Source of the DNA: a virus
Lineage: Duplodnaviria; Heunggongvirae; Uroviricota; Caudoviricetes
Direction: 5' to 3' (one strand)
IMG/VR virus record: IMGVR_UViG_2585427776_000014
DNA: 15,553 nt
Below, piece after piece: positions 72 through 6,891 of this stretch. The notes beneath the pieces are model-generated. The model did no database searches. It was not told the DNA's origin and saw only the letters and a list, made by a program, of their open reading frames with translations. Positions within the stretch are counted from its first letter, which is position 1, and every line of letters starts with the position of its first letter. A program made the translations under genes and the position numbers.

Positions 72-227
72 ATGAAGCAGCAAAAGGCGATGTTAATCGC
101 CCTGATCGTCATCTGTTTAACCGTCATAGTGACGGCACTGGTAACGAGGAAAGACCTCTGCGAGGTACGAATCCGAACCGGCCAGACGGAGGTCGCTGTC
201 TTCACAGCTTACGAACCTGAGGAGTAA
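72..227 (+). CDS. hokD: Hok-family type I toxin, 51 aa
   Basis: ATG at 72 with AGGAG at 57-61. Translation MKQQKAMLIALIVICLTVIVTALVTRKDLCEVRIRTGQTEVAVFTAYEPEE has the Hok/Gef layout (N-terminal TM helix, conserved Cys, acidic tail). Absent from the ORF track because it is under 60 aa. Position next to rem fits the K-12 relB-relE-hokD locus. Confidence 0.9.
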   Translation: MKQQKAMLIALIVICLTVIVTALVTRKDLCEVRIRTGQTEVAVFTAYEPEE

Positions 228-296
228 GAGACCCGGCGGGGGAGAAATCCCTCGCCACCTCTGATGTGGCAGGCATCCTCAACGCACCCGCACTTA

Positions 297-323
297 ACCC
301 GCTTCGGCGGGTTTTTGTTTTTA
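297..323 (+). terminator. Rho-independent terminator downstream of hokD
   Basis: GC stem CCCGC(298-302)/GCGGG(307-311) with TTCG loop, followed by TTTTTGTTTTT (312-322). Confidence 0.5.
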
Positions 324-443: not shown

Positions 444-695
444 ATGATGAACATCGAAGAACTGCGTAAAATTTTTTGTGAAGATGGCCTCTATGCTGTG
501 TGCGTTGAAAATGGAAATCTTGTTAGTCATTACCGCATTATGTGTTTGCGAAAGAATGGGGCTGCGTTAATTAATTTTGTGGATGCTCGGGTCACGGACG
601 GATTTATCTTGCGCGAAGGTGAGTTTGTCACTTCATTACAGGCATTGAAAGAGATCGGAATAAAAGCTGGCTTTTCTGCTTTTTCAGGAGAATAA
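444..695 (+). CDS. rem: Small prophage protein Rem, 83 aa, function unknown
   Basis: ORF track 444..695; GGAAGG at 433-438 as RBS. Length and position between hokD and ydfU match K-12 rem as I recall it. Confidence 0.75.
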   Translation: MMNIEELRKIFCEDGLYAVCVENGNLVSHYRIMCLRKNGAALINFVDARVTDGFILREGEFVTSLQALKEIGIKAGFSAFSGE

Positions 696-761
696 ACTCA
701 TCTACAATCTTGCGCGGGGCTGAACTCCCGCTGAGTAACACCGTGCCACCGGAGAAAACCG

Positions 762-1040
762 ATGGCACGCAACGCAAAATATTACAATTCTGATAATTCG
801 CCCGTTCTTGCCTGCACGCACGGGCGGTATTCTCACGCATTCAAGTCTGAATGGTTCCAGCACCCTCCATGCACTGCAGAACAGGCCGAATGGCTGATTC
901 ATTCTTACCGCAGGCGCGGGTTCGAGGTTAAGAAAGCTCTCAGTCTCGACTATCGGCACTGGATAATCTCTGTCAGGCTGCCTTATTCCGAACGCCCACC
1001 ACGTGCGTCCCGCACTTTCCAGCAACGGATCTGGAGGTAA
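762..1040 (+). CDS. Hypothetical 92-aa protein, possibly unannotated; translationally coupled to ydfU
   Basis: ATG at 762 with GGAG at 751-754 (7-nt spacing). Stop TAA at 1038-1040 lies one base before the ydfU GTG at 1042. I do not recall a named K-12 gene here. Confidence 0.4.
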   Translation: MARNAKYYNSDNSPVLACTHGRYSHAFKSEWFQHPPCTAEQAEWLIHSYRRRGFEVKKALSLDYRHWIISVRLPYSERPPRASRTFQQRIWR

Positions 1041-1041
1041 C

Positions 1042-2091
1042 GTGCGGGTATTACTTAGACCTGTTCTGGTGCCTGAGCTTGGGCTGGTGGTCCTTAAGCC
1101 GGGCCGTGAATCCATACAGATATTTCATAATCCTCGAGTGCTGGTGGAACCGGAACCAAAAAGCATGCGTAATCTGCCATCCGGAGTCGTTCCTGCCGTT
1201 CGCCAGCCGCTGGCGGAAGACAAAACATTGCTGCCGTTTTTTAGTAACGAACGGGTGATTCGTGCTGCTGGCGGCGTTGGCGCATTGTCCGACTGGCTAT
1301 TACGTCATGTTACATCCTGCCAGTGGCCTAATGGCGATTACCATCACACTGAAACAGTCATTCACCGTTATGGTACCGGCGCAATGGTGTTGTGCTGGCA
1401 CTGCGACAACCAACTGCGTGACCAGACATCGGAATCACTGGAGCTGCTTGCTCAACAAAATCTGACAGCATGGGTGATTGACGTCATCCGTCACGCAATA
1501 AGCGGTACGCAGGAGCGGGAATTATCTTTGGCTGAATTATCCTGGTGGGCGGTCTGCAATCAGGTGGTGGATGCACTACCTGAGGCTGTATCGCGTCGTT
1601 CGCTGGGATTACCAGCGGAAAAAATCTGCTCGGTGTACCGCGAAAGCGACATCGTACCGGGAGAGCAGACCGCCACCAGCATATTGAAACAACGCACAAA
1701 AAATCTTGCACCGTTGCCTTACGCCCACCAGCAACAAAAATCACCACAGGAAAAGACGGTGGTAAGCATCACCGTTGATCCAGAGTCTCCGGAATCTTTC
1801 ATGAAGCTGCCTAAACGTCGCCGCTGGGTTAAGGAGAAATACACACGTTGGGTTAAGACACAGCCGTGTGCTTGCTGCGGTATGCCAGCCGACGATCCGC
1901 ATCATCTGATTGGTCACGGGCAGGGCGGAATGGGAACAAAAGCACATGATCTCTTTGTGTTGCCTTTGTGCAGAAAGCATCACAACGAGCTGCATACGGA
2001 TACAGTGGCATTTGAAGATAAGTATGGCTCCCAACTGGAGCTGATATTTCGTTTTATCGATCGCGCGCTGACAATTGGCGTACTGGCGTAA
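1042..2091 (+). CDS. ydfU: Prophage protein YdfU (DUF968-like), 349 aa, with a Cys/His-rich C-terminal motif
   Basis: Track ORF 1003..2091; preferred start is GTG at 1042 with GGAGG at 1033-1037, giving 349 aa. C-terminus carries CACCG...DPHHL...CRKHHNELH. Sits in the nin-region position immediately upstream of Q. Confidence 0.8.
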   Translation: MRVLLRPVLVPELGLVVLKPGRESIQIFHNPRVLVEPEPKSMRNLPSGVVPAVRQPLAEDKTLLPFFSNERVIRAAGGVGALSDWLLRHVTSCQWPNGDYHHTETVIHRYGTGAMVLCWHCDNQLRDQTSESLELLAQQNLTAWVIDVIRHAISGTQERELSLAELSWWAVCNQVVDALPEAVSRRSLGLPAEKICSVYRESDIVPGEQTATSILKQRTKNLAPLPYAHQQQKSPQEKTVVSITVDPESPESFMKLPKRRRWVKEKYTRWVKTQPCACCGMPADDPHHLIGHGQGGMGTKAHDLFVLPLCRKHHNELHTDTVAFEDKYGSQLELIFRFIDRALTIGVLA

Positions 2092-2104: not shown

Positions 2105-2857
2105 ATGAACCTTGAAGCCTTACCAAAATATTACTCCCCAAAATCTCCAAAATTGAGCGATGACGCTCCAGCGACAGGCACCGGTTGTTTAACAATTACG
2201 GATGTAATGGCAGCGCAGGGGATGGTGCAGTCGAAAGCACCACTTGGGTTGGCCTTATTTCTGGCAAAAGTTGGTGTTCAGGACCCTCAGTTTGCGATTG
2301 AAGGCCTGCTAAATTACGCGATGGCACTGGATAACCCGACATTGAACAAATTGAGTGAAGAAATCCGGTTACAGATTATTCCTTACCTCGTGAGTTTTGC
2401 CTTTGCTGATTACTCCAGGTCTGCGGCAAGTAAGGCTCGCTGTGAGCATTGTTCAGGTACGGGATTTTATAATGTATTGCGCGAAGTGGTGAAACACTAC
2501 AGACGCGGGGAATCTGTAATCAAGGAAGAATGGGTGAAGGAACTATGTCAGCATTGCCATGGTAAGGGCGAAGCCAGCACAGCGTGCAGAGGGTGTAAGG
2601 GTAAAGGGATTGTTCTGGATGAAAAAAGAACCCGGTTTCATGGCGTACCGGTATATAAGATTTGTGGGCGTTGTAATGGAAACCGGTTTAGTCGTTTACC
2701 GACCACGCTGGCACGACGTCATGTCCAGAAGCTGGTACCAGACCTGACCGATTATCAGTGGTATAAGGGGTATGCGGACGTCATTGGTAAACTGGTAACA
2801 AAGTGCTGGCAGGAAGAAGCATACGCGGAAGCGCAATTGAGGAAGGTGACGAGATAA
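2105..2857 (+). CDS. quuQ: Late-gene antiterminator Q (phage 82/21-type), 250 aa
   Basis: Track ORF 2075..2857; ATG at 2105 with GGAGA at 2093-2097 gives 250 aa. Contains four CxxCxGxG-type Cys pairs. Located directly upstream of a strong promoter plus terminator, then the lysis genes. Confidence 0.85.
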   Translation: MNLEALPKYYSPKSPKLSDDAPATGTGCLTITDVMAAQGMVQSKAPLGLALFLAKVGVQDPQFAIEGLLNYAMALDNPTLNKLSEEIRLQIIPYLVSFAFADYSRSAASKARCEHCSGTGFYNVLREVVKHYRRGESVIKEEWVKELCQHCHGKGEASTACRGCKGKGIVLDEKRTRFHGVPVYKICGRCNGNRFSRLPTTLARRHVQKLVPDLTDYQWYKGYADVIGKLVTKCWQEEAYAEAQLRKVTR

Positions 2858-6678: not shown

Positions 6679-6891
6679 ATGTCTAACAAAATGACTGGTT
6701 TAGTGAAATGGTTTAACCCTGAAAAAGGTTTTGGTTTCATCACGCCGAAAGATGGCAGCAAAGATGTGTTTGTCCATTTCTCAGCAATTCAGAGCAACGA
6801 TTTCAAAACATTAACTGAGAATCAGGAAGTTGAATTTGGTATTGAGAACGGACCTAAAGGTCCTGCCGCTGTTCATGTAGTGGCGCTTTGA
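6679..6891 (+). CDS. cspI: Cold-shock protein CspI, 70 aa
   Basis: [38 protein letters not shown]... has canonical RNP1/RNP2 motifs; a long AT-rich upstream region precedes it. Confidence 0.95.

Follow-up and report, generated by a model that had tools for sequence, protein, structure and literature searches.

The window that we analysed (the whole stretch of DNA, 15,553 nucleotides, numbered from its first letter) is the Qin cryptic prophage of E. coli K-12 read on the reverse strand, and the genes that concern us follow one another in the order hokD-rem-ORF-ydfU-quuQ (Table 1). A window position converts to the MG1655 genome as 1645346 minus that position, which places the ORF between rem and ydfU at complement(1644306..1644584). 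Its downstream neighbour, ydfU, matches Pfam DUF968 (E=2.6e-76) and encodes a member of His-Me finger group 7 (PMC5714182); the phrog_96 ‘HNH endonuclease’ profile aligns with YdfU from residue 1, and this supports the ydfU start at 1042.

Table 1. Features of the rem-ydfU locus and its surroundings, in window coordinates
Feature	Position	Strand	Description
hokD	72-227		
Intrinsic terminator	296-313		3' of hokD
rem (b1561)	444-695		
Translation-initiation module	700..769	+	5' UTR, RBS and ATGGCNCA; common to DUF1367 genes at the same position elsewhere
Shine-Dalgarno-like GGAG	751..754	+	7-nt spacer (755-761) before ATG 762
Candidate ORF	762..1040	+	ATG 762-764 to TAA 1038-1040, 92 codons
N-terminal extension	762..839	+	Codons 1-26; Escherichia/Shigella-specific, weakly constrained, predicted disordered
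Conserved core	840..1037	+	Codons 27-92; phrog_1212 domain, predicted beta-alpha-beta-beta fold followed by a basic Arg/Pro-rich tail
Predicted mRNA hairpin	1009..1048	+	14 bp; UAAC 1038-1041 bulged out
Putative coupling junction	1033..1044	+	ydfU SD GGAGG 1033-1037, TAA 1038-1040, C1041, GTG 1042-1044
ydfU (b1560)	1042..2091	+	DUF968 His-Me-finger (HNH-type) nuclease gene, downstream neighbour of the ORF
ydfT/quuQ	2105-2857		

An earlier note, made from the sequence alone, had described this reading frame as a likely unannotated 92-codon gene with a good ribosome-binding site, translationally coupled to ydfU and with a product of no recognised family. On inspection of the sequence, the GGAG, its 7-nt spacing from the ATG and the stop codon lie exactly where that note had put them, and our translation agrees with the string that it gave (MARNAKYYNSDNSPVLACTHGRYSHAF...). 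An in-frame stop is present upstream (732-734) and no further in-frame ATG, GTG or TTG occurs before the conserved core, so 762 is the sole usable start. When the 346-nt rem-ydfU spacer was shuffled with dinucleotide composition preserved, a complete ATG ORF of at least 92 codons appeared in 93 of 5000 shuffles (p about 0.02); the length of the ORF is by itself only suggestive evidence for a gene, and it is the comparative evidence that is decisive.

To the extent that complete E. coli genomes were covered, the stretch was found in 4313 of 5426, at 6866 places in total. Of 335 loci drawn from RefSeq, GTDB genomes, IMG/VR and GenBank phages, we took the 247 with the homologous ATG as the long-form set, anchoring their ORFs on that ATG. 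The frame is intact in every one of these 247 loci (92 aa in 191 and 90 aa in 56), and the only indels are in-frame 6-nt changes within the N-terminal extension. Across the 101 unique DNAs, + frame 0 is free of stops throughout, and each of the other five frames carries stops in 79 to 101 of them; an antisense ORF of 137 codons (702-1115) was considered as a gene and rejected, being broken in 79 of the 101 variants. One frameshifted pseudogene copy was seen (locus L018). The pooled Nei-Gojobori dN/dS is 0.21 for the whole gene, and the two parts of the ORF differ: codons 27-92 have a dN/dS of 0.11 with nucleotide diversities of 0.063, 0.066 and 0.254 at codon positions 1, 2 and 3, the third-position value being about four times those at positions 1 and 2; codons 2-26 have a dN/dS of 0.63 with diversities of 0.20, 0.20 and 0.24. 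These values argue that codons 27-92 are under strong purifying selection, and that codons 2-26 evolve almost neutrally except for retention of the frame. The K-12 allele itself is intact, keeps all family-invariant residues and recurs at 99% identity or more in 1249 records.

Homologs with a conserved frame in related prophages, whose absence the earlier note had named among the things that would refute it, are present, and its claim of a real 92-codon gene agrees with a frame kept in 247 of 247 loci and a core under constraint. Taken together, the comparative data indicate that the ORF is a genuine small protein-coding gene of the Qin lambdoid nin region, and we hold it very probable that this gene exists as such, with ATG 762 as its start of translation and a layout suited to coupling. 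Its ribosome-binding site, called good in the earlier note, is not conserved: GGAG is found in about 132 of the 247 long-form loci and CAGAGA in the rest.

The product falls into two parts, of which the second belongs to a known family. Residues 27-92 match the phrog_1212 profile from end to end (1-66/66; E=1.7e-35, 121.9 bits), so the absence of any family, as first reported, holds only for Pfam-type libraries: a Pfam scan of the ORF returned 0 families at E up to 1, NCBIfam gave no match, and PADLOC matched 0 families both for the ORF and for one short-form member. Residues 1-24 have an AlphaFold pLDDT below 50. Homologs outside Escherichia are 66-69 aa long and start at about residue 27 of the K-12 protein, and the protein alignments repeat the split between extension and core that is seen in the codon statistics. 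Relatives of ~66 aa include Gifsy-2 STM1021.1n, mEp237_051, PY54 ORF47, phiES15_017 and GF-2 ORF-72, with further short relatives in Klebsiella, Hafnia, Erwinia and Citrobacter phages; an exhaustive HMMER search of 1.84 billion representatives yielded 101 clusters at 50% identity, in which 66 aa is the commonest length, and protein-level homologs at 30-50% identity occur in at least eight genera. The best structural match in BFVD, N15 Orf QD1 (E=1.8e-3, 29% identity), is a probable homolog as judged from the predicted models.

The setting of the ORF also matches that of phrog_1212 members, namely the nin region of an enterobacterial temperate phage between the replication genes and Q, where homologs are placed between DUF1367 or NinB on one side and NinG, YbcO, RusA and Q on the other. 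These observations suggest that phrog_1212 is a narrow family in Enterobacterales temperate phages for which the 66-aa form is the norm. The ORF has in common with its relatives the nin position, the basic beta-alpha-beta-beta core and a PRPSR..QQ.iW+ tail; it differs from them in that only in the Escherichia form is the ancestral Met missing and an extension of 24-26 residues present, and in that this form is joined to DUF968 whereas the other relatives are joined to NinG or YbcO. The description of the ORF as a single 92-codon unit is therefore right insofar as the frame would be translated whole, but the conserved unit is 66 aa and the first 26 codons are lineage-specific.

The origin of these 26 codons can be traced in part through their upstream flank. 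One megablast match was limited to window positions 700-768; in strain RM9513, a 200-aa DUF1367 gene begins at the equivalent ATG, and the local alignment with that strain spans -60 to +8, homology stopping after codon 3, which points to a recombination junction. In Gifsy-2 and mEp237, the DUF1367 gene stops 5 nt before the short gene. No alternative in-frame start is found near the core in 160 of the 163 long-form loci examined, and an internal start giving a 66-aa product in K-12 was rejected because no in-frame ATG, GTG or TTG lies near codon 27. Given that the core is under selection and that the long forms have no ancestral start, the core would be translated from ATG 762, and the main role of the first 26 codons is to supply this sole available start codon. 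We also rejected two sources for the extension itself: it is not a remnant of the DUF1367 N-terminus, since the two genes have no more than the 5' UTR and the first 8 nt in common, and a derivation from the DUF1367 3' end or from an ancestral intergenic junction was judged not to rise above the shuffled null (observed maximum 30, null maximum 28).

In the alleles P0164 and P0189, the extension is joined with quite different core alleles, as would be expected if it travels with the upstream flank. The simplest reading of these sequences is that recombination at a module boundary made the longer form. The ancestral start codon of the core is gone in the Escherichia lineage; mosaic recombination at the boundary would have placed a DUF1367-type initiation region before the core and added ~24 codons of filler, and the core would since have been translated from ATG 762 through the resulting 26-residue leader, which is weakly constrained and probably disordered.

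At the other end of the gene, the ydfU SD is formed by the last two sense codons of the ORF (TGG AGG). The claims that the stop lies one base from the ydfU GTG and that the ydfU SD falls inside the ORF proved exact and hold without exception in the long forms: the motif TGGAGGTAA[C/T]GTG occurs in 247/247 loci, and the TGGAGGTAANGTG junction is likewise kept in all 247. Junctions of the short forms have an equivalent arrangement, TGGGG(G/T)-TGA-NN-ATG, and conserved codons for a C-terminal Trp-Arg or Trp-Gly pair make up the downstream SD.

The mRNA around the long-form junction is predicted to fold into a hairpin whose 5' arm (1009-1022, codons S83-Q87) pairs with the ydfU SD (1031-1037) and with 1042-1048 (GTGCGGG). 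Folding of window positions 1005-1052 gave an MFE of -19.3 kcal/mol (z=-2.66; 4/200 shuffles as stable), and essentially all of the 28 junction variants are predicted to form the hairpin; a 101-nt context around the junction is not unusually structured (z=-0.65). In the alignment, 89% of cells are paired and compensatory changes number 0, covariation being absent because the region is too conserved, so that support for this predicted structure is thermodynamic only. Of 44 junction variants of the short form, only 4 have a fully paired downstream ATG; the SD-like G-run does pair. We reasoned that ribosomes ending at TAA 1038-1040 could open the hairpin in which the ydfU SD and GTG are otherwise hidden, and that the same ribosomes might then reinitiate 1 nt downstream at the ydfU GTG. 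Translational coupling of the ORF to ydfU, inferred from this arrangement, is plausible: as in classical coupled gene pairs, stop and start are 1 nt apart, the second gene has its SD within the first ORF and begins with a weak GTG, and both this SD and the start would be hidden in a predicted 14-bp hairpin. It departs from those pairs in that the hairpin is without covariation and is only partly paralleled in short-form loci.

Coupling of this kind would not be peculiar to ydfU. DUF968/YdfU is the next gene in all 247 long forms; in a sample of 80 short-form loci, the next gene is NinG in 55 and YbcO/DUF1364 in 19 (for instance, YbcO in mEp237, phiES15 and one Klebsiella phage, and NinG in GF-2), and the gap to the downstream nuclease gene is nearly always 1-2 nt. 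DUF968, NinG and YbcO are all His-Me-finger nucleases linked to recombination (PMC5714182). NinG/Rap, YbcO/DUF1364 and YdfU/DUF968 are unrelated in sequence. In Erwinia 59, Hafnia Pocitis76, PY54 and PhiR46_1, the small gene is followed by something other than a His-Me nuclease gene. A full-length YdfU homolog is present in 173 phage records, and the small gene in 57; in cdtI and mEp390, ydfU-like genes directly follow RusA or a regulator, without the small gene. An obligate partnership with YdfU was rejected on these counts, and the specific link to ydfU that the earlier note had drawn does not survive them, given that NinG and YbcO are joined equally tightly elsewhere and that many phage ydfU homologs lack the small gene.

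A comparable slot is known from lambda, where NinF is a small ORF immediately upstream of ninG/rap. NinF (PF05810) resembles the ORF in its position, as a small protein encoded just before a nin-region His-Me nuclease; however, there is no sequence relationship between the two, the Pfam scan of the ORF being empty, and NinF is a Cys-rich, zinc-ribbon-like peptide whereas the ORF protein is predicted to form a beta-alpha-beta-beta domain. Both occur in Erwinia phage 59, with NinF before NinG and the phrog_1212 member further upstream.

Structure prediction gives limited guidance on function. Proteins of the family are basic (pI 9.5-10), the conserved core of the ORF protein having a pI of about 10 and the Arg/Pro-rich tail one of 11.8, and AlphaFold models the core as beta-alpha-beta-beta with a pLDDT of about 90 (85 in a core-only model). 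Foldseek searches of the PDB with two AlphaFold models returned no significant match (best E about 0.2), and two PDB sequence-profile searches returned nothing significant. Weak matches that recur in Foldseek are R3H domains (PARN, Smubp-2), KH domains and an EHEE mini-protein. R3H and KH are small single-stranded nucleic-acid-binding domains that the ORF protein resembles in size, in beta-alpha-beta-beta(-alpha) topology and in basic charge; they differ from it in that no match is significant (E 0.2-1, TM 0.4-0.5). In the alignments, the helix of the ORF protein has no R-x3-H signature (consensus EEQAEWLIQNYRRRG), and an identity as an R3H domain was rejected on this ground, with Foldseek E values of 0.6-1.0 for the R3H entries and no Pfam match. 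The best-fitting target is the de novo designed EHEE mini-protein, which indicates a generic fold. We suggest only tentatively that the product may be a small protein that binds nucleic acid and serves the phage recombination module as an accessory or regulator.

Three accounts of the association with His-Me-finger nucleases have to be weighed. The genes of this module are ordered DUF1367 or NinB, this gene, NinG/YbcO/YdfU and RusA, and the product would be made alongside the nuclease that follows. One can imagine the phrog_1212 protein as a portable, co-translated cofactor (a DNA-structure targeting or regulatory subunit) for NinG/Rap, YbcO/DUF1364 and YdfU/DUF968, with translation of the ORF in K-12 also acting as a switch for Rho silencing of ydfU and quuQ; we regard this proposal as doubtful, although, if true, it would mean that lambdoid nin regions contain a two-gene module that had escaped notice. 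Alternatively, the small gene may simply occupy a fixed slot in the mosaic nin order with a role unrelated to the adjacent nuclease, and the tight junctions may merely reflect the compactness of phage operons. Such a purely positional association within a conserved gene order is a serious alternative, though less likely than not: the upstream neighbour varies (DUF1367, NinB, RdgC or rem), as does the downstream one (DUF968, NinG, YbcO, Dcm methylase, exonuclease and other genes), YdfU homologs exist without the small gene, and the joining of the P0164/P0189 extension to different core alleles fits mosaic exchange. It sits less well with the finding that a His-Me-finger nuclease comes next in >95% of the sampled loci, in a sample dominated by close relatives, and with a downstream SD that is made of conserved C-terminal Trp-Arg or Trp-Gly codons. 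HNH toxins are commonly paired with small cognate inhibitors, and the small protein might by analogy be an inhibitor or immunity-type partner that restrains the downstream His-Me nuclease, for which the 1-2 nt linkage and probable co-translation with three His-Me-finger families could be cited. However, the immunity proteins of HNH colicins are acidic and mimic DNA; the strongly basic charge of the phrog_1212 protein (pI 9.5-10) makes such an inhibitor unlikely, many YdfU homologs have no small protein beside them, and PADLOC gave no match, so that we consider this account very improbable. The case for a true partnership with His-Me-finger nucleases is weak; the near-constant adjacency to them is nonetheless a cheap, testable lead on the functions of nin-region genes, which are poorly understood.

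A separate matter is what the gene does in K-12. PMC9160355 reports that the Rho-dependent terminator ahead of ydfU ranks with the strongest of its kind in vivo in MG1655 and that rem RNA is hardly changed in Rho/NusG mutants; together, these results put a termination zone in or near the ORF. Within the ORF, the RNA contains C>G bubbles at 790-867 (+12) and 940-1017 (+15). The ydfU-upstream terminator resembles the nin-region terminators of lambda, which need N antitermination. In K-12, the ORF-ydfU unit is probably largely silenced by Rho-dependent termination, and the ORF, lying in a cryptic prophage, probably gives rise to very little RNA or protein under laboratory conditions.

These features bear on two explanations that would diminish the gene. 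Under one, the ORF arose by chance, or is a leader ORF whose translation matters (for coupling or against Rho) and whose peptide does not; an ORF of this length does turn up in about 2% of shuffles, the N-terminal 26 codons are almost neutral, and the hairpin together with the Rho zone offers a plausible role at the RNA level. The comparative data effectively refute this explanation, which we hold to be extremely improbable: the core has a dN/dS of 0.11 with the classic third-position pattern, homologs persist at 30-50% protein identity in at least eight genera, the phrog_1212 match comes with a confident predicted fold, the antisense ORF is broken in 79/101 variants, and the conservation of amino acids where the DNA has diverged argues against RNA structure as the whole cause. 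Under the other explanation, the ORF is a real phage gene that is inert in K-12, where the region would be silenced and the ORF essentially never translated under laboratory conditions, its RNA serving mainly as a zone where Rho loads and terminates transcription, so that ydfU and quuQ stay off. This complements our preferred reading of the family, that of a genuine gene translated from ATG 762, and is a rival to it only for K-12; we find it quite possible, if short of probable. In its favour are the strong Rho terminator with rem hardly affected (PMC9160355), the two C>G bubbles inside the ORF and the intrinsic terminator after hokD, and a literature search by accession and peptide found no paper mentioning the protein. 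Against it, the K-12 allele shows no decay, being intact with its invariant residues kept and at least 99% identical in 1249 records; Rho termination is conditional and would be relieved by an N-type antiterminator or by efficient translation; and the termination zone is placed upstream of ydfU, not pinned to the ORF itself.

As for its annotation, the curated MG1655 record (NC_000913.3) leaves the interval from rem (b1561) to ydfU (b1560) empty, and it is only for this record that the ORF can be called unannotated. RefSeq/PGAP calls exactly this frame a ‘hypothetical protein’, WP_012304870.1; the call, under this or an allelic accession, recurs across thousands of genomes of E. coli, apparently also in laboratory strains with a genome of K-12 size, and in E. 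coli W its coordinates are exactly those of the earlier note. Allelic versions in O157:H7 and other strains are WP_010917803.1 and WP_032155008.1. The exact K-12 protein occurs in at least 1000 contigs and bears the UniRef name ‘Prophage protein’, and phage GenBank records annotate it as well; in all sampled records, the match spans a ‘hypothetical protein’ that is followed by ‘ydfU / DUF968 domain-containing protein’. The ORF is an ordinary annotation gap of the curated K-12 record and not a new gene, its protein being on record already as a hypothetical one of phage origin (WP_012304870.1, phrog_1212), and the importance of the finding is modest. MG1655 is nevertheless the gene-level reference for EcoCyc, the Keio collection, and proteomics and Ribo-seq pipelines, where a missing gene is invisible, and the ‘intergenic’ stretch between rem and ydfU may be misread as non-coding, for example when the strong Rho-dependent terminator is mapped upstream of ydfU; adding complement(1644306..1644584) to the MG1655 record is a justified curation fix.

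We found that rem (window 444-695), which precedes the small gene, is much poorer in G+C than its neighbours (G+C 0.40 and GC3 0.37 for rem vs. 0.52-0.53 for the neighbours) and is missing from some prophages that are collinear in all else, such as the one at locus L003, where the small ORF directly follows hokD; at an O157:H7 locus (L002) a different ORF, of 86 aa, stands in its place. rem looks like an inserted moron. About 250 long-form loci of the small gene include a single clearly decayed copy: the second one in E. coli ECMA0423 (L018, CP178302.1 1503652-1508922), where a frameshift leaves two pieces, 49 aa and 20 aa long.

Two other reading frames overlap the small gene (see table). The antisense frame is broken in 79 of the 101 unique relatives (distinct DNA sequences of the long-form gene), and it is therefore not conserved. 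As to where ydfU begins, the GTG at 1042 is the start in all annotations, and the alignment to the phrog_96 profile begins at residue 1 of the 349-aa version of YdfU; the more upstream GTG comes from a mechanical ORF call.

Overlapping frames and termination signals around the small gene and ydfU
Feature	Window position	Strand	Remarks
Intrinsic-terminator-like hairpin, strong	296-322		Just 3' of hokD; AACCCGCTTCGGCGGGTT then TTTGTTTTT
Probable Rho terminator zone	about 700-1100		Upstream of ydfU
Antisense ORF, 137 codons	702-1115	minus	Spans whole small gene
Alternative ydfU start, GTG 1003	1003-1041		362 aa; overlaps small gene

The terminator upstream of ydfU was reported by an in vivo study to be among the strongest Rho-dependent ones in MG1655, with rem being unaffected (PMC9160355). 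C>G bubbles are present in this part of the window at 790-867 and 940-1017, and the zone should overlap the supposed 'intergenic' stretch that is in reality the small ORF (762-1040). Further upstream, the frame of the small ORF stays open in many relatives as far as the region of the post-hokD hairpin, and because of this a simple 'first start' ORF caller is misled.

A 22.9-kb contig from a metagenome-assembled genome labelled Veillonella parvula (L013, JAGZPX010000007.1) carries a 91%-identical copy of the Escherichia small gene, and this contig is most likely a binning contaminant. In phage vB_EcoS-689R5 (L010, ON470583.1), the small-gene homolog bears the label 'toxin to Rem', while the opposite strand has an annotated 'mobile element protein' of 37 aa that crosses the start of the homolog; both labels look like annotation-transfer artefacts rather than functional evidence. 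Among the family proteins, the best profile score belongs to P0121, a short-form member of 96 aa from Salmonella enterica with an internal tandem duplication of ~30 residues, in which HHHDCTTEQADTLISDYQKRG occurs twice. Finally, the 932-aa protein P0226, which came from the representative search, is built from a ~50-residue unit (…MTAQRLHCSRSTMIYRADD…HHDIQGWWQHRDCTAQGPPWYTGL…) in a tandem array of 14 or more copies; its match to the family profile is weak (positions 4-37, E=1e-7), and the protein may be a repeat-array artefact.
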